Below are positions 4,989 to 24,000 of a DNA stretch of 24,000 bases, in pieces. The notes under the pieces are model-generated. The model ran no database searches. It had not been told where the DNA came from and worked only from the letters and a program-made list of their open reading frames with translations. Source of the stretch: an uncultured Acidobacteriota bacterium (GTDB lineage Bacteria; Acidobacteriota; Terriglobia; Acidiferrales; UBA7541); NCBI GenBank assembly GCA_963800455.1, contig CAWDAY010000004.1:2684593-2708592 (forward strand), given 5' to 3'. The position numbers and the translations under genes were made by a program. Position 1 is the stretch's first letter. Each line of letters starts with the position of its first letter.

Positions 4989-6257
4989 ATGCTCACCCAA
5001 TCGAAGCTATGGAAGAAGGTACTCGCAATTCCACTCGCGTTTTGCGGCGTGTTGGCGCTGCCGGCGCTTTCGCAAGCGCAAGCCGTGCCGCACTATAAGT
5101 TCGATCCCGAATGGCCCAAACTCCCTCTGCCCAACAAGTGGTGGATGATGGGCGTCACGGGATTGGCCGTGGACAAGGACGATAACGTCTGGATCCTGGA
5201 TCGTCCGCGCGACATCGACGCCACACAGAACTATGCGCAGCTAAATCCTCCCACCGCCGAATGCTGCGTCGCGCCGCCGTCGATGATCCACATTGACAAA
5301 GCCGGGAACGTGATCGGTTCCTTCGACCCGCCGGAAGGGCATGGCATGGCGGTGGACAGCAAGGGCTTCGTCTACATCGGCAACTCCGTCAACAAAATGA
5401 ACACGGTCCGCAAATACGATCCCCAGACCGGCAAGGTCCTTGCCGAAATACCCAGGGTTCCGGAGAGCCAGCCGGGCGGCGGTGGAGGTGAAGGCGCACC
5501 CGAGGCTGCAGCGGGCGCTGCGGCTCCAGGCGGGGCCGGTCCGGTCGCGTCCGCAAGGAACGCGGCGGGAGGACGCGGCGGCAATCTCGATCCGGCTGCG
5601 CGGGCAGCGGCGATCGCAGCCTTCCGCGCCAAATATCCCCCGACGACGCCGATGATCGTGGGCCAGATCGAAGAGGTTCGGATCGACGAGCCGGCTCACG
5701 AAATTTATTGCGCTGACAGCTACCTGGGCGGCCGCGTAATGGTATTTGACTTGGACACCTTCGCATTCAAGCGGGGTTGGGGCGCCTACGGGCACCCCCT
5801 GTCGGAAATCACGACCGATGACAAAGACCGCGAATACACTCCCGGTGGCCCGGAACCCAAGGAATTCCGGAACCATCTCACGCTGAATATATCCAACGAT
5901 GGATTGGTTTACGCAGCGGATCGGGGGGCCAACCGCATCGATGTCACCACGAAGGAAGGCAAGTTCGTCAAGGAGTTCCTTCTGGCCACGCAGACTGGCA
6001 ATCGCGGCTCCGCCGGTGGTGTCGCTTTCTCGGCAGATCCGAAGCAGCGTTTCCTGTTTATCTCGGATATTTCGAACAACACGATCTGGATCCTCAGCCG
6101 GGAGGACGGAAAAGTGTTGGGCCGAATCGGCAGCGCGGGCGATTACGGCGGCCAGTTCCACGGCCTTCACATGATCGCCACGGACTCGAAGGGCAACATC
6201 TATACCGGCGAGGTGCAGGCTGGCGAACGCGTCCAGAGGTTTCTCCTGGCAAAGTGA
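4989..6257 (+). CDS. Exported NHL-repeat beta-propeller protein (peptidylglycine alpha-hydroxyglycine lyase-like family)
   Basis: 422 aa with a signal peptide (VLAIPLAFCGVLALPALSQAQA). Repeated NHL-like blades are present (GLAVDKDDNVWILDR; GMAVDSKGFVYIGN; NDGLVYAADRGANRIDV; FLFISDISNNTIWIL; ATDSKGNIYTGEVQAGERVQRF). GGAGTAGAGAG SD upstream. Antisense ORF 5241..6431 is a shadow. Confidence 0.85.
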   Translation: MLTQSKLWKKVLAIPLAFCGVLALPALSQAQAVPHYKFDPEWPKLPLPNKWWMMGVTGLAVDKDDNVWILDRPRDIDATQNYAQLNPPTAECCVAPPSMIHIDKAGNVIGSFDPPEGHGMAVDSKGFVYIGNSVNKMNTVRKYDPQTGKVLAEIPRVPESQPGGGGGEGAPEAAAGAAAPGGAGPVASARNAAGGRGGNLDPAARAAAIAAFRAKYPPTTPMIVGQIEEVRIDEPAHEIYCADSYLGGRVMVFDLDTFAFKRGWGAYGHPLSEITTDDKDREYTPGGPEPKEFRNHLTLNISNDGLVYAADRGANRIDVTTKEGKFVKEFLLATQTGNRGSAGGVAFSADPKQRFLFISDISNNTIWILSREDGKVLGRIGSAGDYGGQFHGLHMIATDSKGNIYTGEVQAGERVQRFLLAK

Positions 6258-6396
6258 GGGCGTCGCGTCTGCTACAGCTTTTCGGTCACCGGCAGCGGGT
6301 TGAAATAAGGAACGGGGAGAAAATCCCGCGCGAGTGATTTGCGGCGGCGCCAGGAATTGGCGTGCGGCCATGTCACAGGAGGCCAAGGAAACGCGA

Positions 6397-7158
6397 ATGA
6401 CTCGGACACGTTCGGTCGTGGCGGTCTTCACTTTTTACGTTCTGCTCGGCTCGTACCTCTCGTCGACGCAGCAAGTTCGCGCGCAGCAGCACGCTATGAC
6501 CTTCTTCGTCACGAGCGCGAACATCGGCAAAGGAGGAGACCTCGGAGGCCTGGCCGGAGCGGACGCGCATTGCCAGACGCTGGCCACCGCGGTCGGAGCC
6601 GGCAATCACACCTGGCATGCGTACATGAGCACACAGGCGCGCGGCGATCAACCTGCAATCAATGCCCGGGACCGCATCGGGCAAGGCCCTTGGTACAACG
6701 CCAAGGGCGAAATGATCGCCCACGGCCTCGCCGATCTTCATGGAGACACGATCGAACTCGCACGTCTCGGCAACAACGTCAATAAGCTGACAGCCCTGAC
6801 CGAAAAGGGCGACATCGTCCCCGGCCTGAACGACAATCCCGACCCGCAAGACCGAACCTGGGCCTATGCCTCCCAGCATCCCAACTCCAATCGCCACGAA
6901 ATGCTGACTGGCTCGCAAACCGATGGCCGCGCCTATACCGATAACACGGACCACACCTGCAACAATTGGACGAGCGACGCCCCGGGGAACGGCAACATCC
7001 AGTCCAATACCGGGCCGGCGGCGCAGATCGGGCTTTCCGACCGCAACGGCGGTCGCAACGGATCGTGGAACTCGTCCCATCCTACGCGCGGGTGCAGCCA
7101 GGACGACTTGGCATTCTCACACGGCGTGGGCTTGTTCTATTGCTTTGCCGTGAACTGA
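6397..7158 (+). CDS. Secreted endostatin-like / DUF1554-like (C-type-lectin-fold) protein, paralog 1
   Basis: Preferred start is MTRTRSVVAVFTFYVLLG (SD AGGAGG/AAGGAA upstream), which parallels the start of the downstream paralog. Conserved core: MTFFVTS..GKGG.LGGLAGADAHCQTLA...W.AY.STQARGDQPA.NARDRIG.GPWY.AKGE.IAHGLADLHGDTIELAR ... MLTGSQTDGRAYTD..DHTCNNWTS ... SWNSSH...GC.Q.DL....G.GLF.CFAVN. Confidence 0.85.
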   Translation: MTRTRSVVAVFTFYVLLGSYLSSTQQVRAQQHAMTFFVTSANIGKGGDLGGLAGADAHCQTLATAVGAGNHTWHAYMSTQARGDQPAINARDRIGQGPWYNAKGEMIAHGLADLHGDTIELARLGNNVNKLTALTEKGDIVPGLNDNPDPQDRTWAYASQHPNSNRHEMLTGSQTDGRAYTDNTDHTCNNWTSDAPGNGNIQSNTGPAAQIGLSDRNGGRNGSWNSSHPTRGCSQDDLAFSHGVGLFYCFAVN

Positions 7159-14858: not shown

Positions 14859-15131
14859 ATGCGGAAATCAGCGCCCGGCAGCCAGCCCATCGCCGAAGCG
14901 ACCAGCGCTTCGATGAAAACGCTGGTCGAGGTATTGGTTGGGAAAGGGTTGGCTCCGCACTCGACCAAGGACATCTGCTTGGTGGTCAAGCTGGTGATGG
15001 CAAGTGCTGTGGATGAGAACGGCGATGAACTCTATCCGATGAAGTGGAACGCGGAGTTCATTGACGCACCAGTTGAAGTGACCGTGGATTCACACAACTC
15101 GCGACTCGTCTCTGTTTCACGACAAGGTTGA
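14859..15131 (+). pseudogene. Fragment of a tyrosine recombinase (phage-type integrase), N-terminal SAM-like/arm region only
   Basis: The segment KTLVEVLVGKGLAPHSTKDICLVVKLVMASAVDENGDELYPMKWNAEFIDAPV matches the N-terminal core-binding region I recall in a widespread integrase family (...L.P.TI+N....+K.V..SAVDE.GE.L+P.KWN.EFID.P). No catalytic domain follows; the ORF ends 15 codons later. Confidence 0.5.
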
Positions 15132-15244
15132 TTTATTCAGTTCACCACTGAGTTGTTAAAGCTTCTGAAAAACATAAGATTTGGGAAACGACGCGCCGTT
15201 GCGATGCCTTTTGCATGCGGGACCGATTGGTAGACCCGAAGCGA

Positions 15245-15273
15245 GGACGACGTCTTAAAATATGACGCCGTCC
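15245..15273 (-). terminator. Hairpin 12 nt downstream of the rsr stop (possible operon terminator)
   Basis: GGACGACGTC (15245-15254) / GACGCCGTCC (15264-15273) form a 10-bp stem (one G-U on the minus-strand RNA) with a 9-nt AT-rich loop. No strong U-tract. Confidence 0.3.
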
Positions 15274-15284
15274 CCTTTCGTGAA

Positions 15285-16604
15285 TTATATCCGTGGCATT
15301 AACTCCAGTTCGCGGATGTACTCGACAACAGCTTCACTCCAGCCGTCGATGTGCGTCCATGGACCGTAGCCGACACCGTTCTTGTTACTGGCAACGTTGA
15401 TCACATAGCCGCGGCCTCTCGGCCCCGGCACATGATCGTGGGCTTGTTCGTCTGTGATCACGATGATCCGGTCATAATTGTCCCGAATCTGTTCGAGCGC
15501 ACGGCCGAGGTAGGTTGCACTATGCGGCTGGCTCGCATCCAGCGCATCGCGCAACGCAAACCCTCGCCGCTGGGGCACCTCGACCAGGTTGTCCGAAAAC
15601 GTGAATGTGATCGCTTTCTCGCAAACTTCCCGGAGCAGAATGGCGAGGCCATATGCCGCGTCAGTTCGGAGCATCTCCGACCGGCGAGACAGCGCGGCCA
15701 TCATGCTGCCCGAAACGTCTACGAGAAGAACAGTTCGCCCGGGCAGTTTTTCCTGCGCCTTGAGCGAAGCAAGCATGGCCCGCTCGAGGGATTCCTCCCA
15801 CTGAGGCGCAAATCGCGCCGCAGCGAGAAAACGAAACGGCAGGACGCGTCCCGTCTTCATGGACTCAATGCCATCCACCACGAGAGATTCGTCTACGCCC
15901 GCCTGCTTCATGTTTCGCAGGTTACGAAGGAGTGCAAGCCCGCCGAGTTTTCGTTCGCGGAGCAACCGTTCCCATGCCTCACGCTTATCGGCACCGGAAG
16001 AGAGCGCCACCTCCCAGGTGTCGGGAGTTTGCAGCTCTCCTTCGATCAGCCGCTTCCACAGCGCGCTCTGTTCCGCGTCACGCGGCTTCCCGTGGCAAAG
16101 GAACAGAACGTCACGGAGACGAATCGGCCCGCTGCGGTCATACTTGGCGAGCTGGTATTCGTCGAATTTGCGGAAAGCCTCGGCCAGCCCTTTCTTCGCT
16201 TGGGCGGAGAGGGGAGCTTTGCCATCCTTCCAGTAGATTGCAACGAATTCCGCAAGTTCGTCCGCGCGCTGGATCACCTGTACAAGCGTGCGCGAAACAA
16301 ATTCGCGGTGCGTCTTCAGGCGCGCTATTTCACGAACGAGCAGTAACGGAGCGTGCCGAAGTTTCATCTTGGTTCGTGCCTCGACGGCAAGTAACGCTAC
16401 AATCTCGGCTTTCACCTTCGGCACGAGCGACTGAATGCGGCCGGCGATCTCCACTCCGTCCTCATAGAATTGGTCCTCCCACAGCAAGCATGCGAGCACC
16501 GATCGCCGCAATTGAAGCTCGGGGGAAATATTTCGCGCAGGAGCTCCTTCGTGCGTGCGAGTCCCCCACGGAAACGGAATTTTCAAGATGTTCAGTCGTG
16601 CCAT
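15285..16604 (-). CDS. rsr: Ro60 ortholog Rsr (TROVE domain + vWA domain)
   Basis: 439 aa with a strong SD (AAAGGAAAGGAGG). The TROVE-like HEAT-repeat N-region includes EDQFYEDG, RHAPLLLVRE, LRDVLFLCHGKP and LLRNLRNM. The C-terminal vWA has a MIDAS motif (LLVDVSGSM). It sits in a locus with rtcBA, rtcR and Y-RNA-like units. Confidence 0.9.
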   Translation of the reverse strand: MARLNILKIPFPWGTRTHEGAPARNISPELQLRRSVLACLLWEDQFYEDGVEIAGRIQSLVPKVKAEIVALLAVEARTKMKLRHAPLLLVREIARLKTHREFVSRTLVQVIQRADELAEFVAIYWKDGKAPLSAQAKKGLAEAFRKFDEYQLAKYDRSGPIRLRDVLFLCHGKPRDAEQSALWKRLIEGELQTPDTWEVALSSGADKREAWERLLRERKLGGLALLRNLRNMKQAGVDESLVVDGIESMKTGRVLPFRFLAAARFAPQWEESLERAMLASLKAQEKLPGRTVLLVDVSGSMMAALSRRSEMLRTDAAYGLAILLREVCEKAITFTFSDNLVEVPQRRGFALRDALDASQPHSATYLGRALEQIRDNYDRIIVITDEQAHDHVPGPRGRGYVINVASNKNGVGYGPWTHIDGWSEAVVEYIRELELMPRI

Positions 16605-16633
16605 TGTGTCCTCCTTTCCTTTGCCAAATTCAA

Positions 16634-16784
16634 TCGTCGGGGAATTGGTGGCAACGGATGCAGCCTAGGCTGCCGATTGCTCTACCTTCTGAGCTACACG
16701 GAGCGACCGCGAGGTGGATCCGAGGCAGGAGTCGAACCTGCGACCCATCGATTAGAAGCAACCGTCACCTGCGCCACCGACGAA
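16634..16784 (-). ncRNA. Y-RNA-like unit Y5 (YrlA-like): closing helix plus circularly permuted tRNA-like module
   Basis: Minus-strand RNA: the 5' UCGUCGG-UGGCG... pairs with the 3' ...UUCC-CCGACGA. Internally, the T-arm GCAGG-UUCGACU-CCUGC (16741-16725) PRECEDES an imperfect acceptor-like helix closed by a loop. This is followed by GUA + D-arm GCUC-AGAAGGUA-GAGC (16694-16679), then the hairpin GCAGC-CUAG-GCUGC. It ends 30 nt before the rsr ATG. Boundaries are approximate. Confidence 0.6.
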
Positions 16785-16811
16785 TTCTGTATTGCTCGTT
16801 GTTCAAGATCT

Positions 16812-16967
16812 TTCACCGGGGAAAATCGGACACGGGGCTTTTCTGTGCGGTTTCCCGCATTGAGCTACCCCGACGATCGGGAGCAGGAGTTGAACCTGCA
16901 ACCTCCCGCCGCTCTCGCGACGGGCGCTCTACGTCATTGAAGTATCCGTGTCTTTCGCCACCGGCGA
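16812..16967 (-). ncRNA. Y-RNA-like unit Y4 with tRNA-like module (T-arm, GNRA-capped arms)
   Basis: The 5' UUCGCCGG-UGGCG-AAAGACACGG pairs with the 3' CCGUGUC-CGAUUUUCC-CCGGUGAA. Internal order: GUAGAGC, then an 8-bp hairpin CCCGUCGC-GAGA-GCGGCGGG (16924-16905), AGGUU, T-arm GCAGG-UUCAACU-CCUGC (16899-16883), hairpin CCCGA-UCG-UCGGG, GUAGCUCAA, and hairpin UGCGG-GAAA-CCGCA (16859-16846). It starts 5 nt after the stop of the 108-aa ORF. Confidence 0.55.
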
Positions 16968-16971
16968 ATTG

Positions 16972-17298
16972 TCATCGTGAGTTTTCATCCAGGATGAGCG
17001 CGATTTTTTCGCTGCTATTTTCGGTTTCATCGAGACACACGAAGCCCGCGTCCCGCTTCAGTGCGACCTTGTCCAGAACGATGGCGATTTCTTCCATTTC
17101 ATCGAACGTTGGCTTGTTCTTCTCGATGTACGCGGTGCATGCGCGCACGGAAAAGTGCATCCGCCGTTGCGGCCACAATGCCTGGCACACGACGACCAAT
17201 TCGGTCTCGCCGTATCCCCGCGCACTGAAAGCTCGCGAACACGATTCGCACAAAGATGGTCCGTTGACGGGAGTCCCGTTCTTCACATAGATGCCCAT
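16972..17298 (-). CDS. Hypothetical 108-aa protein (CxxC plus two further Cys), embedded in the Y-RNA array
   Basis: ATG at 17298 is preceded by AGGAGGTAAATC (strong SD). The protein reads MGIYVKNGTPVNGPSLCESCSRAFSARGYGETELVVVCQALWPQRRMHFSVRACTAYIEKNKPTFDEMEEIAIVLDK..., with an acidic C-terminal tail. It has the same strand and tight spacing as the flanking operon elements. I recognise no family. Confidence 0.6.
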   Translation of the reverse strand: MGIYVKNGTPVNGPSLCESCSRAFSARGYGETELVVVCQALWPQRRMHFSVRACTAYIEKNKPTFDEMEEIAIVLDKVALKRDAGFVCLDETENSSEKIALILDENSR

Positions 17299-17380
17299 GA
17301 TTTACCTCCTTTCCAAGAAGCGTGAATATTGCGCCTCTGAATCCGCGAGAAATCCTGCACGGCCTTTTCTCGGAAAAATA

Positions 17381-17545
17381 TTCGCCGGGGAACAAGCGCC
17401 CAGGGTTGTCTCAAGGCGGTTTTCAGTAGGTGCCTTGTCCTTCGGGACTACGCCCCCGCCCCTACTGCTTCCTTATCCTTGGCAGGATTTCCGGTCCTGC
17501 GCGACGTTGGCGGAGGAAGTAACCCTCGACTACGCCACCGGCGAA
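17381..17545 (-). ncRNA. Y-RNA-like unit Y3 (no canonical T-loop; different effector module)
   Basis: The 5' UUCGCCGG-UGGCG-UAGUCGAGGGUU pairs with the 3' AACCCUGGGCGCUUG-UUCC-CCGGCGAA (perfect 8-bp closing helix plus GGGUU/AACCC). Internal hairpins are GCAGGA-CCGGAAA-UCCUGC and CAGUAGG...GUCC-CGAA-GGAC...CCUACUG. Confidence 0.45.
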
Positions 17546-17551
17546 ACTTAT

Positions 17552-17661
17552 GGCCAGGGAAAATCAGGCACGGCGATATTGGGGATTCGAACCCCGCCGC
17601 TTTTCGCTTGAGCAAAGAGCGGTCTTCGCCCGAGAAGTATCCGTGTCTTACGCCACTGGCC
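17552..17661 (-). ncRNA. Y-RNA-like unit Y2 (contains a consensus T-arm)
   Basis: The 5' GGCCAG-UGGCG-UAAGACACGG pairs with the 3' CCGUGCC-UGAUUUUCC-CUGGCC. Internally there is a 10-bp arm CGCUCUUUGC-UCAA-GCGAAAAGCG followed by the T-arm GGGG-UUCGAAU-CCCC (17595-17581). It shares the exact 16-mer AAGACACGGAUACUUC with Y4 (forward coordinates 17634-17649 and 16939-16954). Confidence 0.5.
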
Positions 17662-17668
17662 GCTTGAT

Positions 17669-17741
17669 CCTGGGGGAATGACCGTCTACGGTCTTTTTTG
17701 TCGAGTGACAGTCGATGAAATCGCAGACTGCGCCACCCAGG
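17669..17741 (-). ncRNA. Y-RNA-like unit Y1 (short, 73 nt)
   Basis: The 5' CCUGGG-UGGCG-CAGUC... pairs with the 3' ...GACGGUCA-UUCC-CCCAGG. Internal hairpins are CAGUC-UGCGAUUUCAUC-GACUG (17730-17709) and GACCG-UAGA-CGGUC. Confidence 0.4.
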
Positions 17742-17976
17742 TTCAAAAAATTGGAACTAGCAAAGAATTGATGTGAAAGAAGATAGCTATCGCGAGGGAC
17801 CGGACCACGTTCGGACACAATCCCGGCCCAGCATCAATCCCGCTTGCCGATCCATCGAATTGTGTTTGCGATGCTGCATTCCGAACATTCTCCAGAGCCG
17901 CGAATTCTAGATGAATTTCTCGTTTTGCGCAATAGTAAATATTCGATGCCAGAGTCAGATATTTCGGCGGCATCAT

Positions 17977-19014
17977 TCAAGTCGCTGGACTCACCTCGAC
18001 TCTCGTACACCCACTTTCCTCGCGAGTCTCGAAACAAACAGGTAAGAAGGTGGATACGACATCCATATTCGTCCGAGCGTGCCGGTTCAACTTCGAAGCC
18101 GTGAACACTCCGCCGCCCGCCAAAGCAAAAGGGAGCAATAGTTGATCGGCCAAATGCTCGCCGACCGCAGCTGCAGACGCAATGTAAGCGCGCGCTTCCT
18201 TGACGGCCTCCGTTGCGACGCTTTCGGCGCTTGCCCCGAGCCGGCCAAATCCGCAGAACAGTTCCGTCATCCCGGTGGATGTTCCCACTTCGATCAACAC
18301 GACGTTTCCCGGCCCGACAGAATTCCTGGTTTCGACGATTCGCATGCATTTGTTGTCCCAATTCAGCAAGTGCGCAACAGTGTCAATCTCGCGGCGTGCA
18401 ATGGCGGGAGACAAGTTCGCGACGATTGCCAATACACTCCGACGAGTGATTTCGCCGCGCTCTATCATGTCAGTCGGCGACAAGTGTTCGGACGGCTCAA
18501 CAGTCGCAGTGAAGCATCCGCCTCCTACGGGATAGAAGCCATATCGCTCCAGATTCACACTTACTTTCGGTCCGAGCCTGTTAATGACTGGCAAAAAGCA
18601 CTTCTCAAGAAAATCAAAGGGAGGTGCCGCCTGATTGTGTGTACCGCCCTCAATCGTGATTTGGCTCGGTCCAGACGACATCATCAGAGCCGGCAAGATC
18701 GTTTGAAATACGAGTGTGCTGCTCCCAGCCGTTCCGATGACGAAACGGTGCTTCCCCGGTCGTACAGTTCCGGGAATAAAGGTAAGAGTCTTCGATCCGA
18801 GAGTCGCGCCTTCGACTTTTGCCTCTCCAACTTCGGATGCAGCGAGAACCGCCGTAAGGTGTTGCCTTAGCAAACCTGGCCGTTCCCGCTTCGCCCGGAT
18901 GTTTTCAATGCGGAACGCTTTTCCGGTTGCGAGCGACAGGCTGAGCGACGAGCGCAGAATCTGTCCGCCGCCTTCGCCCGAAGATCCATCGATCCGAATC
19001 ATGTTCCGCTCCAT
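17977..19014 (-). CDS. rtcA: RNA 3'-terminal phosphate cyclase RtcA
   Basis: 345 aa, collinear with E. coli RtcA: IRIDGSSGEGGGQILRSSLSLSLATGKAFRIENIRAKRERPGLLRQHLTAV..., GTAGSSTLVFQTILPAL, AAVGEHLADQLLLPFALAGGG, and the His-containing segment NRHARTNMDVVSTFLPV. It starts 10 nt after the rtcB stop. Confidence 0.95.
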   Translation of the reverse strand: MERNMIRIDGSSGEGGGQILRSSLSLSLATGKAFRIENIRAKRERPGLLRQHLTAVLAASEVGEAKVEGATLGSKTLTFIPGTVRPGKHRFVIGTAGSSTLVFQTILPALMMSSGPSQITIEGGTHNQAAPPFDFLEKCFLPVINRLGPKVSVNLERYGFYPVGGGCFTATVEPSEHLSPTDMIERGEITRRSVLAIVANLSPAIARREIDTVAHLLNWDNKCMRIVETRNSVGPGNVVLIEVGTSTGMTELFCGFGRLGASAESVATEAVKEARAYIASAAAVGEHLADQLLLPFALAGGGVFTASKLNRHARTNMDVVSTFLPVCFETREESGCTRVEVSPAT

Positions 19015-19024
19015 TTGCCTTCAG

Positions 19025-20254
19025 TCATCCTTTAACGCACACAACTTGGTGCAACGTATGAACGATTTCCACCAAGTCGGCCTGCGCCGCCATTACAGCC
19101 TCGATCGACTTATAGGCGGCTGGAGTTTCGTCGATCACGTCTGCGTCCTTCCGGCACTCTACGCCGGCAGTCATGCGTTCGTGATCTGCTACGGAAAATC
19201 GCCGCTTTGCTTCGCCACGAGACATCGCACGACCCGCCCCGTGACTACAGCTTTGGAAACTTTCCGGGTTACCCTTGCCGCGAACGATATAGGAACGCGC
19301 CCCCATGCTGCCGGGAATGATCCCCATATCGCCTTCGCGCGCACGGACCGCGCCTTTTCGAGTGACCAGAACATTCTCGCCGTAGTGCGACTCCCGTGCG
19401 ACGTAGTTGTGGTGGCAATTAATCGCCTTCAACTCCGCGACGAATGGTCGCACTTCACTCGAAGAACGGACGGCAGCAACAATTTGTTCCATCATCAGAT
19501 GCCGATTCCAGCGAGCGTAATCTTGTGCCCACTCGACTGCCGCGACGTAGTCATCAAAGTGTTCCGAATGCTCCGGGAAATAAGCCAGATCACGATCGGG
19601 CAGATTGATGAACATTCGTTCCATATCTTTTCGGGCGAGCTCGATGAAGTGGCTGCCCATTCGATTGCCCACGCCGCGTGAGCCACTATGCAGCATGAAC
19701 CACACCGCATCCGATTCATCGAGACACACTTCGATGAAGTGATTCCCGGTGCCCAGCGTGCCCAAGTGATTCGAGTGATTTCCTCGATCGAGCTTGGGGT
19801 GCTTTTCGAGAATCGTGTCATACCGCGGCTTTAGCGTTTGCCAAACGTCCAGCGTGCGCGCCGGGATGTCATTCCACGCCCCTCGATCGCCTCGGCCACC
19901 GTGGTTCGTTCGGCCATGAGGTACGGCCTTCTCAATCGCTTCGCGAACGCCCTTCAGAGTTTCCGGGAGGTCGCGCGCGTTGAGATCCGTTTGTACGGCC
20001 ATCATGCCGCAACCGATGTCGACGCCGACCGCAGCCGGGATAATCGCGCCCTTGGTCGGGATCACGCTGCCAATCGTGGCGCCCACGCCCCAGTGCACGT
20101 CCGGCATCGCAGCAACCCATTTGAAAACGAACGGAAGTTGCGCGACGTTGACAAGCTGTTGGCGCGCCTGGTCCTCTAAGGCGACGCCCTTGGTCCACGC
20201 CTTGATGGGTATGCCCTTCTCAGGAACAATGACGTTATAAGTTGTCTCGGACAT
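19025..20254 (-). CDS. rtcB: RNA-splicing/repair ligase RtcB
   Basis: The start is set at ATG 20254 (MSETTYNVIVPEKGIPIKAWTKGV...) with GGAGGAG SD, giving 409 aa. It is collinear with E. coli RtcB (KMWTKGV, MPDVHxGxGxTIGSV, HSGSRGxGN, INCHHNY). The track start at 20410 would place the sigma54 promoter inside the CDS. Confidence 0.95.
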   Translation of the reverse strand: MSETTYNVIVPEKGIPIKAWTKGVALEDQARQQLVNVAQLPFVFKWVAAMPDVHWGVGATIGSVIPTKGAIIPAAVGVDIGCGMMAVQTDLNARDLPETLKGVREAIEKAVPHGRTNHGGRGDRGAWNDIPARTLDVWQTLKPRYDTILEKHPKLDRGNHSNHLGTLGTGNHFIEVCLDESDAVWFMLHSGSRGVGNRMGSHFIELARKDMERMFINLPDRDLAYFPEHSEHFDDYVAAVEWAQDYARWNRHLMMEQIVAAVRSSSEVRPFVAELKAINCHHNYVARESHYGENVLVTRKGAVRAREGDMGIIPGSMGARSYIVRGKGNPESFQSCSHGAGRAMSRGEAKRRFSVADHERMTAGVECRKDADVIDETPAAYKSIEAVMAAQADLVEIVHTLHQVVCVKG

Positions 20255-20393
20255 TGTCGCTCTCCTCCATTTCAGAACTCTTGGTCCCGTGAGGCGCGGA
20301 GTACATTGTCCCCCGCGCCTCCCTCGGTTCGCGATTCCCACATCGCTCGCGAACTTCCCGCTCGCTTTTTTATCGTCTCTGGCGAGATATAAA

Positions 20394-20409
20394 TGCAGGC
20401 CACGTGCCA
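20394..20409 (-). promoter_or_regulatory. Sigma54 (-24/-12) promoter of the rtcB-rtcA-Y-rsr operon
   Basis: The minus strand reads TGGCAC-GTGGC-CTGCAT against the consensus TGGCAC-N5-TTGCW, with GG and GC at canonical spacing. It lies ~140 nt upstream of the rtcB ATG and between the divergent rtcR and rtcB genes, as expected for RtcR-dependent operons. Confidence 0.75.
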
Positions 20410-20517
20410 ATCTCGATGGCGAAGGTAAGGCACTGCGACTAAGGGAGATACCACCGGGAACCTCCGAAAGAAACTCGATGCGACGATCCCATAAGATACG
20501 ATATTATAAATATAGAT

Positions 20518-22116
20518 ATGCCGGACAAGCCACATGTCGCGATCGGCCTATTGGGCACGACCCTTGACGCGGGCCGCTCGCAGGATCGCTGGTCGAGTTG
20601 GCGGCCAACCGTTGCCATCTGCATGCAACCGGACTTTGTGATTAAGCGCTTGGAACTACTGCACGGATTACGTGACAAGACCCTGGCCCATCGCATCGTG
20701 AGCGACATATCAGCCGTCTCACCCGAAACATCCGTGAAGCTGCACGAAATCGAATTTGGCGATCCCTGGGACTTCGAACGTGTATACGAGACCCTTTTCA
20801 AGTTCACACGCGGCTACCCGTTTGACACGGATAACGAGGAATACCTGATCCACATCACGACGGGTACGCACGTTGCCCAGATCTGTCTCTTCCTGCTAAC
20901 AGAGTCTCGATACCTGCCGGGAAAATTGCTTCAGTCCGCCCCCGAACGCGATAGGAAGGCGCCTGGAAACATAAAAATAATCGACCTGGATCTTTCCCAG
21001 TACGACCGCATTGCTTCGCGATTTCGTCAGGAAGCGCGTGATGCAGTCTCTTACCTGAAGGGAGGAATCGATACAAAGAACGCTGCGTTCAACCAACTCA
21101 TTGACCGGATCGAACAGGTTGCCATCGCCACTCGAGACCCACTTCTCCTGATGGGTCCCACGGGAGCCGGCAAATCGAGGCTCGCCCGAAGAATCTATGA
21201 GTTAAAGAAAATGCGCCACACAATCACAGGAGAGTTCATCGACGTAAACTGCGCGACACTTCGAGGCGACGGGGCGATGTCCACGCTCTTTGGACACGTG
21301 AAGGGAGCCTTTACCGGAGCGCTCAAGGATAGACCCGGAGTCCTTCGGGCCGCAGATAAAGGAATGCTATTTCTGGACGAAATCGGAGAGCTTGGAAACG
21401 ACGAGCAAGCGATGTTGTTGCGGGCTCTGGAAGAGAAAACTTTCCTGCCGCTTGGATCGGACCGTGAAGCTCACAGCGATTTCCAAATGATTGCGGGAAC
21501 GAACCGCGACCTACTCTCAGCCGTCCGGGAGGGCCGCTTTCGTGAGGATCTTCTGTGTCGAATCAATTTATGGACGTTTACATTACCGGGCTTGAGGTCG
21601 CGTCCTGAGGACATCGAACCCAACCTGCAATTTGAGCTAGACCAATTCGCGCAGCGCACTGGCCATCGTGTAACCCTCAGTAAAGAGGCCCGCGAGGCTT
21701 TCCTTCGTGCCGCGCTCGCCTCGTCAGCAAAGTGGACTGGCAATTTCCGTGATCTGAACGCCGCGGTCGTCCGGATGGCCACGTTGGCACAAGGCGGACG
21801 AATTTCCGTTGAGATTGTTGAAGAAGAAATCGAAAGGCTCAAGGCGACTTGGGCGGCACTCGAAGAACAAGAAGAATCGGATGGCCTTCTTACTCAAATT
21901 CTAAGCGCAAAAGCGCTCGACCATATCGACCTGTTCGACCGAGTTCAGCTTGCTCGTGTGATTCAAGTTTGCCGCGATTCACGTTCGATGTCGGAAGCTG
22001 GCCGTCAATTATTCGACGCCTCGCGAACGCGCAAGACAAGTACGAATGATGCGGATCGCCTACGCAAGTATTTAGGCCGATTTGGAATCGAATGGGATCA
22101 AATTGTGAGAGCGTGA
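20518..22116 (+). CDS. rtcR: Sigma54-dependent transcriptional activator RtcR (CARF sensor domain + AAA+ + HTH)
   Basis: 532 aa, collinear with E. coli RtcR from end to end. Shared segments: VAIGLLGTTLD...WRPTVAICMQ...LELLH...ISAVSPET...DPWDFERVY...YLIHITTGTHVAQICLFLL...IIDLDLSQY (CARF-type N-domain), GPTGAGKS Walker A, GHVKGAFTGA sigma54-contact loop, and NDADRLRKYLGRFGIEW at the C-terminus. Confidence 0.95.
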   Translation: MPDKPHVAIGLLGTTLDAGRSQDRWSSWRPTVAICMQPDFVIKRLELLHGLRDKTLAHRIVSDISAVSPETSVKLHEIEFGDPWDFERVYETLFKFTRGYPFDTDNEEYLIHITTGTHVAQICLFLLTESRYLPGKLLQSAPERDRKAPGNIKIIDLDLSQYDRIASRFRQEARDAVSYLKGGIDTKNAAFNQLIDRIEQVAIATRDPLLLMGPTGAGKSRLARRIYELKKMRHTITGEFIDVNCATLRGDGAMSTLFGHVKGAFTGALKDRPGVLRAADKGMLFLDEIGELGNDEQAMLLRALEEKTFLPLGSDREAHSDFQMIAGTNRDLLSAVREGRFREDLLCRINLWTFTLPGLRSRPEDIEPNLQFELDQFAQRTGHRVTLSKEAREAFLRAALASSAKWTGNFRDLNAAVVRMATLAQGGRISVEIVEEEIERLKATWAALEEQEESDGLLTQILSAKALDHIDLFDRVQLARVIQVCRDSRSMSEAGRQLFDASRTRKTSTNDADRLRKYLGRFGIEWDQIVRA

Positions 22117-22135: not shown

Positions 22136-24000
22136 CTAATTCACGGAGAATAGCGTAGGCTCCACGACAGCCTGCGCTTCGGGATTGTAGTAGTCGTACA
22201 AGGTCGAAGGAGGTGTCACGGCTTTCAACCCGAAACGCGGCTTAAACGTAAAAGAAAACTTCGTGCCCCCTGCGTGCGGCCAGAGATAAACGACCATTCT
22301 GTCCGGCAACACTTCGTACTGGTTGATGTCCCATCCGGATTCCTTCATTGCCGTCTCGACCGAGCTTCTGTCCACTTCCGCGCCGGGTGGCAGGCCGATT
22401 TCGGCCAGCATCATTCCGTAACCTCGAAATCCAATTCTCTCGGCTTCGACACTGCATCGAGTGCTCTCCCCCACCTTGGCCGACGGGCTCTCGTAGTGGA
22501 CTCGCAGCCGCAAAGTGTCCGAAGATTTGTCTTCGTGCTGGAAGTCTTCCTCCTTTGCGGTCTGGACCCAGGGCACATAGTAATCCGAGATCAATTGGAG
22601 CGACGCCTGTGCGGATCCTGCGCCACGGCGAATTTCCAGATGATGTGGTCCCGGGGAAATAAATTTCGATATATCGGCCGTGACCGGGGCGGTCAGTTCG
22701 TCGGGACTCGGCATGTTAATGGTTAAGGTCTGACGACCGTCGACCAGGATCGACGCTACGAGGTTCGCCTTTGACGAAACGCCCGGTCCGCTCGTCGTCC
22801 TTGGAACCGTGAACGAATGGATTGCATCCAGGACGTTCACAGTCGCCTGCGTCGAGAACCAAATCCCGAATCGATCTTGATTACGAAGCAGAAAAAGCAA
22901 ACCCCGGGACACGAGTGGATCGGCCACTGTATTGTTATCCGATGCTTTCTCAAACGCTTGCAGCACGATCGCGGTCGTTTCGACTCGTCCAGTTAGCCCC
23001 CATCCATAGAAGGGCGTATTGGTCTCAAGAGACCAGTAGCTGAAGTTGCCTTCGCGATGTTCCAGTTTCCGCAGCCTCTCAAGACTTTCAGTGACACGAG
23101 GCTTGTCTCCCACATAGAACGACGCGAGCGCGTAGGACGCGATCAGATAGGGCTCATCGTAAGAGCTGGCTTGCTTTTCCAAATAACCGAGCGCTCGCGC
23201 GACTGCCGTCGATGCCGCTTTGGATAAACGTGCGTTTTCTGCGGGATCAGCCACCGTGACTTTTGTTGTGGCAATGACCCGTGCGATATATGCGGTCAAG
23301 ACAGCCGTCCGGTGCGCGTCTTCTGGTCCGCCCCAGGTGGTCGCGATCCAACGACCGTCGTCCTGCTCGTGGTGCAGCAGCCACGACAGATTTCCCTGGG
23401 CGATAGAATCATCGACGTTTGTGAACTCACGTGCTTCACTTAGAAATTTCATGGCGTAGGCAGTCAGCGCGGGATCGGAATCACCTCTACCCCAATACGT
23501 GATTCCTCCATCAGGGGCTTGATAAGAGAGCAGCCGCCCGTAGCCGAGTTCCACATACCGCTTCGCGCGGGCGACAACGGTCGGTGCGGCACCCCGCGCG
23601 TCTTTGGTGTATTGCAGAAGCAAGAGGCTCGGATAAGCCGACGAAATTGTTTGTTCCGCGCAGCCGTAAGGACGGCCCAAAATCCCCTCGACACTTTCGA
23701 GGACGTGAGCATTCAGGTTCGGATAGATCTTCAGTGTGCCTTCAAGAGACCCGGGAATCGTGTTATCCGGAATCCGGATGTCCACGCCTGCGGAGTCTCC
23801 GAAGATTTGGCTGACCGTCTCGACGTGTTCTTCTCCGTTCGGTCGAACGGTGACCGTTCGCTCGATGGCGTCGCCCGCATCTGCGCCACTCGCGACGATT
23901 CTTTGCTTCCCGTTCTTGATCGGCGCGGTCGCATGGAATTTGAACACTTCGTTCTTGCTGTCGCGTGCAGGGACGGTAGTCTTCACAGAAGTCGGACTCA
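22136..24000 (-). CDS. Alpha-2-macroglobulin family protein with thioester motif; C-terminal ~620 aa only (N-terminus beyond the right edge)
   Basis: It contains GRPYGCAEQTISSAYPSLLL (CxEQ thioester site) followed by the alpha-helical TED-like region and a C-terminal receptor-binding-like beta domain. The track start at 23986 is a GTG inside an ORF that stays open to position 24000. Confidence 0.85.
   Translation of the reverse strand, partial: SPTSVKTTVPARDSKNEVFKFHATAPIKNGKQRIVASGADAGDAIERTVTVRPNGEEHVETVSQIFGDSAGVDIRIPDNTIPGSLEGTLKIYPNLNAHVLESVEGILGRPYGCAEQTISSAYPSLLLLQYTKDARGAAPTVVARAKRYVELGYGRLLSYQAPDGGITYWGRGDSDPALTAYAMKFLSEAREFTNVDDSIAQGNLSWLLHHEQDDGRWIATTWGGPEDAHRTAVLTAYIARVIATTKVTVADPAENARLSKAASTAVARALGYLEKQASSYDEPYLIASYALASFYVGDKPRVTESLERLRKLEHREGNFSYWSLETNTPFYGWGLTGRVETTAIVLQAFEKASDNNTVADPLVSRGLLFLLRNQDRFGIWFSTQATVNVLDAIHSFTVPRTTSGPGVSSKANLVASILVDGRQTLTINMPSPDELTAPVTADISKFISPGPHHLEIRRGAGSAQASLQLISDYYVPWVQTAKEEDFQHEDKSSDTLRLRVHYESPSAKVGESTRCSVEAERIGFRGYGMMLAEIGLPPGAEVDRSSVETAMKESGWDINQYEVLPDRMVVYLWPHAGGTKFSFTFKPRFGLKAVTPPSTLYDYYNPEAQAVVEPTLFSVN

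Follow-up and report, generated by a model that had tools for sequence, protein, structure and literature searches.

What does a 108-codon open reading frame (ORF) do inside an array of Y-like RNAs, between the RNA-repair genes rtcB and rtcA and the gene for a bacterial Ro60 orthologue (Rsr)? The question is raised by a locus within a 24,000-nucleotide stretch of DNA from an uncultured acidobacterium (the ‘window’ in what follows). In current descriptions a bacterial Ro60 system consists of Rsr and Y RNAs, PNPase being tethered via the Y RNA, and to our knowledge no dedicated protein cofactor belongs to such systems. An original prediction, made from the sequence alone, suggested that the small protein encoded by this ORF (here termed the ‘Cys4 protein’) might be an RNA-binding or assembly partner of Rsr, the Y RNAs or RtcB.

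An RNA-repair operon with five Y-like units

The genes for RtcB, RtcA and Rsr all lie on the minus strand and the gene for the activator RtcR is divergent, so that the locus reads, from rtcR onward, as rtcB-rtcA-Y-Y-Y-ORF-Y-Y-rsr. Its features are as follows.

15285 to 16604, minus strand: rsr, Ro60 orthologue with TROVE and vWA domains (Pfam TROVE, E=2.7e-18; vWA_Ro60)
16642 to 16787, minus strand: Y5, which resembles YrlA best and has a tRNA-like module (Rfam YrlA and motif)
16812 to 16970, minus strand: Y4 (repeats, motif, fold z-score -3.05)
16972 to 17298, minus strand: gene for the Cys4 protein, 108 aa (ORF list and translation)
17305 to 17310, minus strand: Shine-Dalgarno sequence AGGAGG, 6 nt 5' of the ATG
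17382 to 17547, minus strand: Y3, 3' limit uncertain (repeats, alignment A3, motif)
17552 to 17661 (approximate), minus strand: Y2 (repeat family D1/D2/D3, alignment A3, motif match)
17669 to 17741 (approximate), minus strand: Y1, a short unit (5' block at 17714-17737; closing stem in the fold)
17977 to 19014, minus strand: rtcA, RNA 3'-phosphate cyclase (Pfam RTC, E=9e-76)
19025 to 20254, minus strand: rtcB, RNA ligase (Pfam RtcB, E=5e-131)
20394 to 20409, minus strand: candidate sigma-54 -24/-12 promoter TGGCACGTGGCCTGCA, about 140 nt 5' of the rtcB ATG
20518 to 22116, plus strand: rtcR, divergent sigma-54 activator with a CARF-like RtcR N-domain and a sigma-54 AAA+ domain (Pfam RtcR, E=4e-81; Sigma54_activat, E=2e-47)

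The true start of rtcB is likely the ATG at 20254, giving a protein of 409 aa, and the TTG listed as the start, at 20410, probably extends the frame too far; the Pfam RtcB match begins at residue 85 of the long form, and homologues are 409 aa in length. The candidate promoter TGGCACGTGGCCTGCA is the best -24/-12 match in the window (with one mismatch), although the pattern is not enriched there over shuffled sequences, so that it is the position of the site that speaks for it. A search of both strands of 15000-20700 detected no sigma-70-like promoter, and the only terminator-like site on the minus strand (15853-15840) falls inside the rsr coding region.

The Rsr protein of the window retains an intact MIDAS motif (DVSGS), and D-x-S-G-S is likewise retained in all 42 of the Rsr proteins linked to the family described below. 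Its best PDB sequence match is 9kop/9l5y, a ‘TROVE domain-containing protein’ (E=7e-33). The accession 9KOP is given for the crystal structure of the Thermus phage phiLo Ro60, in a report that describes the role of the Ro60 MIDAS site as unclear (PMC12135203). A split Ro60, in which an Rsr of only about 440 aa would be completed by the Cys4 protein, was considered and rejected: the Cys4 core does not resemble HEAT repeats, and the alignment of the compact Rsr with the 500-residue 9kop/9l5y chains runs from one end to the other.

A common 5' block, GGTGGCG-N8-GGNTNCTTC, is present in each of the five Y-like units, and Y2 to Y5 align to each other. The positions of these blocks on the minus strand (17714-17737, 17634-17657 and 17516-17539 upstream of the ORF, 16939-16962 and 16755-16778 downstream) put Y1 to Y3 ahead of the ORF and Y4 and Y5 behind it, and the ORF sits on the operon strand inside the array, where the original prediction had located it. 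The spacing that it described holds as well: about 80 nt separate the end of the conserved 3' block of Y3 from the ATG, and the stop codon (16974-16972) abuts Y4, whose 5' end, at about 16970, follows 1-2 nt later. In its fold, Y2 combines a closing stem with a T-arm-like GGGGUUCGAAUCCCC hairpin. An extra hairpin 3' of Y3 runs to about 17340. Y5 gives a full-length Rfam YrlA alignment (16648-16768, 38.9 bits, E=3e-6) and Y4 a partial one (16849-16903, 23.9 bits, E=0.07); none of the five units reaches the gathering threshold of Rfam YrlA (RF02553), which is 69 bits, and they are therefore called Y-like rather than counted as curated YrlA members.

The closest known arrangement is the Salmonella-type rsr-yrlBA-rtcBA operon (e.g. 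PMC7790460, PMC9879122), which consists of the same parts (divergent rtcR, rtcB, rtcA and rsr) and which, as in the window, combines tRNA-like Y RNAs between the genes with a -24/-12 promoter (here a candidate). The window differs in that its gene order is reversed, with rtcBA first and rsr last; in that it holds five Y-like units instead of two; and in that an extra protein gene, the Cys4 ORF, lies inside the Y array. No counterpart of the Cys4 protein was found in the literature searched, and we know of no such protein from the systems of Salmonella, Deinococcus or mycobacteria.

A small four-cysteine protein with an acidic tail

The strength of the ribosome-binding site was among the features that had drawn attention to this ORF, and with good reason: AGGAGG-N6-ATG occurs a single time in the whole 24 kb window, at the start of the ORF (AGGAGGTAAATC-ATG, 17310-17296, minus strand), where 0.07 occurrences would be expected by chance. 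A conserved leader, CGCGCTTCTTGGAAAGGAGGTAAATC, encloses the Shine-Dalgarno sequence and is kept in three related loci (L004, L006 and L001). Conservation of the reading frame had been named beforehand as a test on which the gene should be judged, and the frame is kept. Against the 92%-identical relative L004 the dN/dS ratio is 0.065, with codon-position differences of 7/2/31; against L006 it is 0.157; and over the comparisons of the ORF it ranges from 0.065 to 0.3, with changes biased to the third position, indicating purifying selection.

A chance reading frame in the spacer of an RNA array, corresponding to no gene, might have been suspected from the facts that every source leaves the ORF unannotated or ‘hypothetical’ and that a long spurious ORF overlaps it on the plus strand. 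That reading is effectively refuted by the low dN/dS ratios and their third-position bias, by the retention of length and cysteines down to 30% identity, and by a ribosome-binding site that is both strong and unique in the window. The ORF of 108 codons is a genuine gene under strong conservation, and its product is a small protein with four cysteines and an acidic tail.

The translation contains, as originally noted, C17-x2-C20, C38 and C54 together with the acidic tail LDETENSSEKIALILDENSR. The four cysteines lie in a core of residues 1 to about 87, with the spacing C-x2-C-x17-C-x15-C, and the tail comprises residues 88-108 and terminates in EKIALILDENSR. A fifth cysteine of the window protein, C88, is non-conserved. 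Homologues of the ORF form 67 clusters at 48-94% identity, and the wider family comprises at least 267 representative clusters (50% identity) at E<=1e-3. Its motifs run from an N-terminal (V/I)K-N-G-T-P through C-x2-C, G-Y-x-E-S/T-E, C, F-x-V-x-x-C-x-x-Y, M-E-x-I-A and A-G-F to the acidic tail, and the window protein carries every one of them. Distant relatives can be tied to the family by hhalign, with probabilities of 99% for a member on a viral contig and 97.7% for a paralogue.

The four cysteines are the most conserved positions of this large family: among 92-116 diverse sequences, C17 and C20 never vary, C38 and C54 are present in at least 90%, and a variant (P0023, from L006/L007) is without C38 and carries a 4-residue deletion. 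The acidic tail is family-wide (median charge +1 for the core and -5 for the tail over 97 sequences), so that a mildly basic core (pI ~7.6-9.4) is joined to a tail in a protein that is acidic as a whole (median pI ~5); in the clade of the window the tail ends in a clade-specific motif, [EK]-I-E-L-[IV]-L-D-E. Two AlphaFold models predict the core with a pLDDT of about 90 (85-93) and little regular secondary structure, namely an N-terminal CxxC turn, then a beta-hairpin, and a sole core helix (residues 65-72 in both models) about 10 residues after C54; the tail is modelled at low confidence and is read as probably disordered. Such scarcity of regular secondary structure is typical of small metal-stabilised domains, and a metal site is further suggested by the fact that the four cysteines are the most conserved positions, as the ligands of such a site would be. 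We therefore infer that the Cys4 protein binds metal, most likely in a structural Zn(Cys)4 site.

The original prediction recognised no family, and the profile and fold searches that it proposed lead to the same result: the ORF and its homologues match nothing in Pfam, NCBIfam, PHROGs, PADLOC or PDB sequences, and neither AlphaFold model, for all the confidence of its core, has a significant Foldseek match in the PDB or BFVD. The only matches obtained with the ORF and 92 homologues are at noise level (YqbF_HeH, E=0.08; CopZ, E=0.02; and GATA, E=0.06, the last owing to the C-x2-C-x17-C spacing). PADLOC defence models were matched by neither the ORF, three homologues nor the window Rsr; tblastn with three family members returned no match in phage and plasmid collections; and a homology search seeded with the viral-contig member recovered only its near-identical copy. 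A genome scan yielded only two loci, a ‘Saccharimonadales’ MAG contig and a partial match in a Baltobacteraceae MAG.

The suggested zinc-ribbon or treble-clef arrangement fares only partly well, in that the four cysteines are indeed conserved but the label is not secured, given the missing second CxxC and the absence of a fold match. For a treble clef, two ligands would be expected at the N-terminus of a helix, in addition to the CxxC knuckle; in both models the only core helix begins some 10 residues beyond C54. Small Cys4 zinc domains (zinc ribbon, treble clef, rubredoxin-like, DksA/TraR and Trm112-like) have in common with the Cys4 protein the four conserved cysteines, the small size, the N-terminal CxxC turn and the beta-hairpin; in contrast to them, it lacks a second CxxC or C/HxxC/H knuckle, and the place of ligands three and four is taken by lone cysteines with 15 residues between them. 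A zinc ribbon was accordingly rejected (one CxxC, formed by C17 and C20; C38 and C54 single; no Pfam zinc-ribbon match above threshold), as were archease, the RtcB activator (no Pfam archease match for the ORF or 92 homologues), and the ZAS anti-sigma, DksA-TraR and WhiB-like families (no Pfam or NCBIfam match, and a C-x2-C-x17-C-x15-C spacing that differs from all of them).

Linkage to rsr and to Y-like RNAs

The layout of the window, with rtcR followed by rtcBA-Y-ORF-Y-rsr, is repeated in L006 and L007, and relatives that are 35-40% identical are found ahead of TROVE genes, at distances of 16-48 nt. In a sister clade (35-41% identical), rsr is the next gene downstream, on the same strand, in 64 of 65 informative metagenome loci (those with at least 300 nt of downstream sequence), with a median gap between ORF and rsr of about 69 nt. 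When informative loci are grouped at 90% identity, 38 of 42 clusters are linked to rsr.

The Y-like RNAs follow the same pattern. YrlA-like Rfam matches occur just upstream of the ORF in all five distant loci tested, and the Y 5'-stem motif is present in 87 of 100 loci, with a count of ~280 matches against an estimated ~1 expected by chance, nearly all in same-strand arrays of 1-7 units immediately upstream of the ORF; in the sister clade the units finish a few tens of nucleotides before the ATG. By contrast, rtcB was found within 6 kb in none of 15 long sister-clade loci. Of the co-occurrence with rsr and rtcB that was to be checked, then, the part concerning rsr, and with it the Y-like RNAs, is very strong, whereas the part concerning rtcB does not extend to the sister clade. 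The nearly constant placement of the gene between Y arrays and rsr, in soil bacteria most often labelled as Acidobacteriota, indicates that it is probably an undescribed part of the Ro60/Y-RNA machinery for RNA quality control in bacteria, and intergenic gaps of 12-100 nt argue for co-transcription.

Several members sit elsewhere. The L001 lineage has rtcB and one Y unit, with no rsr within 8 kb. An orphan subclade (47-50% identity) lies between an aas-like gene and an mla operon, with no rsr, rtc gene or Y RNA nearby; this neighbourhood is conserved in three separate clusters, and the IELILDE tail is retained. A single 33%-identical member, on a 653-nt contig, overlaps an ECF sigma-factor gene by 8 nt (Sigma70_r2, E=4e-14), and the viral-contig member, 34% identical to a sister-clade query (alignment A4), overlaps a gene for an AAA_25 primase/helicase-type ATPase. 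The seven source labels are mixed: three point to Acidobacteriota (Terriglobales/Acidobacteriales, Ca. Angelobacter), and the remainder read Saccharimonadales, Baltobacteraceae, Actinomycetota and Verrucomicrobiae. The 92%-identical ‘Saccharimonadales’ MAG contig is probably mis-binned.

A possible accessory component of the Ro60 ribonucleoprotein

Taken with the position of its gene, which is what suggests a physical association with Rsr or RNA, these observations favour, at somewhat better than even probability, the view that the Cys4 protein binds metal and belongs, as a dedicated accessory component, to the ribonucleoprotein that Ro60 (Rsr) and Y RNAs form in bacteria. In such a scheme, a single RtcR/sigma-54-driven transcript would carry rtcB, rtcA, the five Y-like RNAs, the Cys4 ORF and rsr, and, as a consequence of this common transcript, the Cys4 protein would be made at the same time as Rsr and the Y RNAs once the operon is induced by RNA damage. 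The folded core of about 87 residues, near-neutral to mildly basic, would dock on Rsr, on Y RNA or on both, and the disordered acidic tail would engage a cationic site, for which the candidates are the MIDAS metal in the vWA domain of Rsr, the basic surfaces with which Rsr binds RNA, and a third effector protein; in this way the Cys4 protein might gate the access of RNA or bring in an effector. A bolder version, which we consider rather unlikely, would add the Cys4 protein to an acidobacterial Ro60/Y-RNA particle as a third subunit in stoichiometric amount, with its tail acting as a MIDAS ligand or as an RNA-mimicking plug of the cavity, such that Ro60 would be switched between Y-RNA-bound and substrate-bound states or an effector would be recruited. 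Models for such a tail may be sought in acidic-tailed adaptors (for example, the C-terminal tip of SSB), which likewise join a folded core to a disordered acidic tail with a short conserved end motif, and in the acidic ligands of vWA MIDAS sites in integrin-type interactions, given that the Rsr encoded beside the Cys4 gene keeps its MIDAS; both are pure analogies, with no sequence or fold kinship to the Cys4 protein.

The same placement might be explained by a zinc-finger protein that binds RNA and acts on the Y RNAs or their polycistronic precursor, helping to process, fold, stabilise or load the array, rather than by a stable partner of Rsr. The embedding of the gene in Y arrays, with its stop codon against Y4, would suit such a role, as would the mildly basic core and the loci (L001-L003) that hold a Y unit, the ORF and rtcB with rsr not nearby; however, the whole protein is acidic, Pfam and Foldseek detect no known RNA-binding domain or fold, the orphan subclade persists where no Y RNA is near, and rsr itself is the tightest and most constant neighbour. 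This explanation is judged unlikely, if the best placed of the rivals. A small regulator or sensor acting outside the ribonucleoprotein (a redox-sensitive zinc or Fe-S Cys4 switch, an anti-activator or an anti-sigma-like protein), tuning the expression or activity of the RNA-repair module, is a proposition that we regard as improbable. A redox switch or an Fe-S site could be built from the four conserved cysteines, the response of Rsr systems to oxidative and UV stress counts in its favour, and the 33%-identical member is translationally coupled to its ECF sigma factor; but that case is one example on a very short contig, and the protein neither matches ZAS/zf-HC2, DksA/TraR, WhiB or other regulator families nor has a cysteine spacing that fits any of them.

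The linkage might, finally, be nothing more than synteny inherited within one bacterial lineage, the protein having a role unrelated to Ro60. If most members come from one lineage, part of the synteny may indeed be inherited rather than selected, and the few labels that look reliable point to Terriglobia, the others being mixed; the orphan neighbourhood with its threefold conservation and the distant members in unrelated contexts can be read in the same direction. Yet the adjacency to rsr and the Y array survives between clades that are 35-41% identical and saturated in dS, it survives rearrangements of all else, whether rtcBA lies upstream, rtcB lies downstream or rtc genes are missing altogether, and the short intergenic gaps favour co-transcription. 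We regard this reading, too, as improbable.

The view of the Cys4 protein as an accessory Ro60 component has precedents in concept. In RYPER (the Rsr-Y RNA-PNPase complex of Deinococcus and Salmonella) and in the phiLo Ro60 with Yrl1/Yrl2 (PMC12135203), with which the window shares a compact Ro60 gene immediately preceded by Y-like RNAs, the common idea is of Ro60 plus an adaptor that brings another activity; in the known cases the adaptor is the Y RNA itself and the effector, PNPase, is encoded elsewhere. The window differs from both in that it encodes a dedicated small protein between Y RNAs and rsr. The long Y-RNA arrays of these soil bacteria, of up to about seven units, are unusual in themselves, and the family is new to annotation, with neither a Pfam model nor a detectable structural relative. 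Its gene, held between the Y array and rsr in lineages that have diverged to 35% identity, points to a component of bacterial Ro60 systems that has so far gone unrecognised.

Reading frame and RNA array

The interval of the window between rtcA and rsr (the gene for Rsr, the bacterial Ro60 orthologue) holds five related RNA units, Y1 to Y5, on the same strand as both genes. Units Y2-Y5 have repeated blocks in common, and a motif built from their common 5' block (GGTGGCG-N8-GGNTNCTTC) places three units before and two units after a 108-residue reading frame, ORF108, which starts about 80 nt past Y3 and ends a few nucleotides before Y4, as the original prediction had it.

Features of the locus (window positions; genes from Pfam, Y blocks from the motif)
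20518-22116, plus strand, rtcR
19025-20254, minus strand, rtcB, with the start set at the ATG that gives 409 aa, as in homologues
17977-19014, minus strand, rtcA
17714-17737, minus strand, 5' block of Y1, 5' of ORF108
17634-17657, minus strand, 5' block of Y2, 5' of ORF108
17516-17539, minus strand, 5' block of Y3, 5' of ORF108
16972-17298, minus strand, ORF108 (open reading frame, 108 aa)
16939-16962, minus strand, 5' block of Y4, 3' of ORF108
16755-16778, minus strand, 5' block of Y5, 3' of ORF108
15285-16604, minus strand, rsr/Ro60 (TROVE and vWA domains)

The translation (MGIYVKNGTPVNGPSLCESCSRAFSARGYGETELVVVCQALWPQRRMHFSVRACTAYIEKNKPTFDEMEEIAIVLDKVALKRDAGFVCLDETENSSEKIALILDENSR) agrees exactly with the cysteines (C17-x2-C20, C38 and C54) and the acidic tail first described for it; a fifth, non-conserved cysteine lies at position 88. 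The strong ribosome-binding site (AGGAGGTAAATC-ATG) is also real, the arrangement AGGAGG-N6-ATG occurring a single time in the 24 kb window, at the start of ORF108 (0.07 expected by chance). A word-indexed search returned 67 homologous protein clusters (48-94% identity, lengths of about 101-111 aa), all of them labelled ‘hypothetical’, and HMMER, run exhaustively over 1.84 billion representatives, gave 267 clusters at E<=1e-3, of which 36 reach E<=1e-10. The reading frame, on whose conservation the original prediction had been staked, is kept: against a 92%-identical relative (locus L004) the differences number 7/2/31 at codon positions 1/2/3 (dN/dS = 0.065), while dN/dS is 0.157 against the close relative L006 and 0.15-0.32 in more distant pairs, where dS is saturated. 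ORF108, the ‘Cys4’ gene, is a real, conserved gene, and that it should be no gene at all is scarcely credible. A 452-aa frame on the plus strand (15932-17290), antisense to rsr, the Y units and ORF108, looks spurious.

No unit of the window matched Rfam at the gathering threshold; in E-value mode, Y5 gave a full-length alignment to the YrlA model (38.9 bits, E=3e-6) and Y4 a partial one. The term ‘Y-like’ is used for the units, which fall short of curated YrlA membership. The same mode placed YrlA-like RNAs just 5' of the Cys4 gene, on its strand, in 5/5 distant loci. When 100 loci were scanned for the 5'-stem motif, allowing <=2 substitutions, it was found in 87, with about 280 matches counted against about 1 estimated by chance, almost all of them in same-strand arrays of 1-7 units directly 5' of the Cys4 gene. 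Arrays of up to 6-7 units precede the Cys4 gene and rsr in metagenome loci L022-L095 (whose few taxon labels are mainly Acidobacteriota), which is more than is known from described bacterial Ro60 loci. Calls of tRNA genes or tRNA-like elements fall within three arrays, and could be either functional tRNAs or tRNA-like modules of the Y RNAs.

Examples of long Y arrays (motif) and tRNA calls within arrays (positions in each fetched locus)
L041, 4566-5836, long Y array
L063, 3276-5831, long Y array
L049, 3040-3694, long Y array
L006, 7674-7748, tRNA-His (GTG), 60.9 bits
L041, 5548-5615, tRNA-Asn (GTT)
L027, 5635-5708, tRNA-Asn (GTT)

Linkage to rsr

In the close relatives L006 and L007 the layout of the window is repeated (rtcR, then rtcB-rtcA-gap-ORF-gap-rsr), and in L004 the Cys4 frame is followed by one Y unit and then rsr. 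A ‘sister clade’, 35-41% identical to the window protein and with the N-terminus M-x-Y-R-K-V-Y-G-G-T-P, has members 16-48 nt 5' of TROVE genes, with rtcB next in some. This clade was followed into 80 metagenome loci, with neighbours identified by tblastn in the 65 that extend >=300 nt downstream. Of the two partner genes with which co-occurrence had been envisaged, rsr stood, being the next same-strand gene in 64/65 loci (median gap about 69 nt; rtcB in the remaining one), and rtcB fared less well, lying within 6 kb in 0/15 long sister-clade loci, which points to rsr, and not rtcB, as the primary partner. When all fetched loci were collapsed at 90% identity, 38 of the 42 informative clusters were rsr-linked. 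From this linkage and the motif scan, the conserved module consists of a Y-RNA array followed by the Cys4 gene and, after it, rsr, compared with which the window clade (the close relatives of the window protein) has two extra Y units between ORF and rsr and has rtcBA upstream. The Cys4 gene is thereby placed for co-expression with rsr and the Y RNAs.

Both major clades carry a leader element, GCTT(C)TT(A/G)GAAAG, before the start codon (compared over the 30 nt 5' of the ATG in related loci; 17299-17328, minus strand, in the window). It is extended into a strong SD (GAAAGGAGG) in the window clade; an SD-like motif is present in only 11/80 sister-clade loci. The element may mark the place where a Y RNA has its 3' end or is processed, or else serve as an atypical signal for the initiation of translation.

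The best sigma-54-type match of the window, TGGCACGTGGCCTGCA, lies at 20409-20394 (minus strand), about 140 nt 5' of rtcB; neither strand of 15000-20700 showed a sigma-70-like promoter, and the sole minus-strand terminator-like site is within the rsr coding region. Taken together, these make one RtcR-dependent transcript across the whole locus plausible. A TTG-start form of rtcB (19025-20410, minus strand) looks over-extended and overlaps the candidate promoter. Beyond the 3' end of rtcR, a large minus-strand frame cut by the window end (22136-23986) has a GCAEQ thioester-like motif; it resembles bacterial alpha-2-macroglobulin-like proteins, and TED_complement/A2M_recep domains are annotated in the L006 counterpart.

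The linkage has exceptions. In loci L001-L003 (59% identity) the ORF is accompanied by rtcB, a single Y unit and a patatin gene, and rsr is not encoded within 8 kb. An ‘orphan’ subclade (L008, L009, L012 and L013; 47-50% identity) retains the IELILDE tail in a different, conserved setting, flanked by an aas-like gene and by mlaDEF, where neither rsr and rtc genes nor Y-like RNAs lie close by; in L008 the member (809-1129) is followed by a divergent 147-aa paralogue (1151-1594) with a hydrophobic N-terminus and an hhalign probability of 97.7%. More distantly, on a contig of only 653 nt (L099), a member with 33% identity (107-424) runs into the beginning of a gene for an ECF sigma factor (417-653; Sigma70_r2, E=4e-14), and another, on an IMG/VR viral contig (L100, 5437-5745; 99% probability in hhalign), overlaps the gene for an AAA_25 primase/helicase-type ATPase (5727-6776); both are, judging from these overlaps, translationally coupled to the neighbour. 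On the strength of these exceptions, the wider superfamily is a general small Cys4 module, of which the two largest sampled clades are specialised with Ro60 and Y RNAs.

The Cys4 protein and its possible role

Residues C17, C20, G28 and A72 are invariant in two alignments of 92-116 diverse members, and C38, F49, V51, C54, G85 and F86 reach >=90% in both; C38 is invariant in the larger (116 sequences), and M68 reaches 90% in the smaller (92) only. Further signatures are an N-terminal K-N-G-T-P, G-Y-x-E-S/T-E after the CxxC, and an M-E-x-I-A-W helix. Among 97 sequences from the fetched loci, the median net charge is +1 for the core (about 87 residues) and -5 for the tail (about 27 residues), and the whole protein has a median pI of about 5. 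Tails vary by clade but close with a short motif that each clade conserves: the window clade, the L001 lineage and the orphan subclade share [EK]IEL[IV]LDE, and much of the sister clade has ...PEE[IV]PAA... instead. AlphaFold models of the window protein (92 sequences) and of the member P0228 (116 sequences) both have a core pLDDT of 85-94, a low-confidence tail, and a common topology of CxxC turn, beta-hairpin, extended segments, one short helix (65-72) and two short strands.

As anticipated, the family is not a recognised one: neither single sequences nor the profile matched Pfam, NCBIfam, PHROGs, PADLOC or PDB sequences, and Foldseek comparison of the two models to the PDB and BFVD gave nothing below E=0.28. 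The suggested zinc-ribbon or treble-clef arrangement survives in its four conserved cysteines and not in its fold names, for C-x2-C-x17-C-x15-C has one knuckle only, short of the zinc-ribbon definition, and the treble-clef label finds no support either. The cysteines are read most economically as a structural Zn(Cys)4 site, with an Fe-S cluster as a possible alternative. One variant, P0023 (L006 8001-8315, also L007; 7 contigs, operon otherwise intact), carries Arg in place of C38 and lacks four residues ahead of C54, and may be a decaying or divergent copy.

On balance, we lean towards the Cys4 protein being an accessory protein of the Ro60/Y-RNA particle, and the original, hedged description of an uncharacterised, probably metal-binding protein and probable Rsr/Y-RNA partner is supported at that strength. 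Its core, stabilised by the metal, would dock on Rsr, on Y RNA or on both, and the motif of the acidic tail would engage a cationic site, for which one candidate is the MIDAS (the metal site motif of the Rsr vWA domain). This motif is intact in 42/42 linked full-length Rsr proteins, and what it does in Ro60 is described as unclear (PMC12135203); that the tail binds there is doubtful. A Y-RNA-binding or processing factor, rather than an accessory protein, seems unlikely, and a redox or regulatory Cys4 switch, a reading prompted by the sigma-factor-linked relative, distinctly more so.

The synteny might also be simply inherited, with the protein serving an unrelated role. Source labels are few and mixed, so that part of the synteny could be inherited and not selected: three are Acidobacteriota (Terriglobales/Acidobacteriales, Ca. 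Angelobacter), and the others (Saccharimonadales, Baltobacteraceae, Actinomycetota, Verrucomicrobiae) are suspected to be mis-binned. However, the rsr/Y adjacency outlasts saturated divergence and the rearrangement of all other neighbours, and we regard an unrelated role as improbable. The contig of L004 (DATHNC010000017.1), whose Cys4 protein is 92% identical to that of the window, is filed under a ‘Candidatus Saccharimonadales’ MAG; a binning error is suspected there, given how scarce and varied the labels are in the rest of the family, three being of Terriglobia type.

Comparison with known systems

The Rsr proteins of the window and linked loci are compact (about 440 aa). The solved structures of Deinococcus and Xenopus Ro60 are absent from the PDB sequence matches of the window Rsr. 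Its nearest entries are 9kop/9l5y (‘TROVE domain-containing protein’, E=7e-33), 9KOP being the accession given for the crystal structure of Thermus phage phiLo Ro60 (PMC12135203). The phiLo locus has upstream Y-like RNAs, as does the locus described here, which varies on the rsr-yrlBA-rtcBA operon that RtcR controls in Salmonella (PMC7790460, PMC9879122). It is set apart by the extra protein gene within the array, by the number of Y units and by gene order. No description of a small cysteine-rich protein beside rsr was found in the literature searched, which did not extend to Burroughs & Aravind 2016, the comparative-genomics study closest to the subject, or to the Ro60 review of 2020. What appears to be new here is a variant Ro60/Y-RNA locus, built around a protein family without known relatives.
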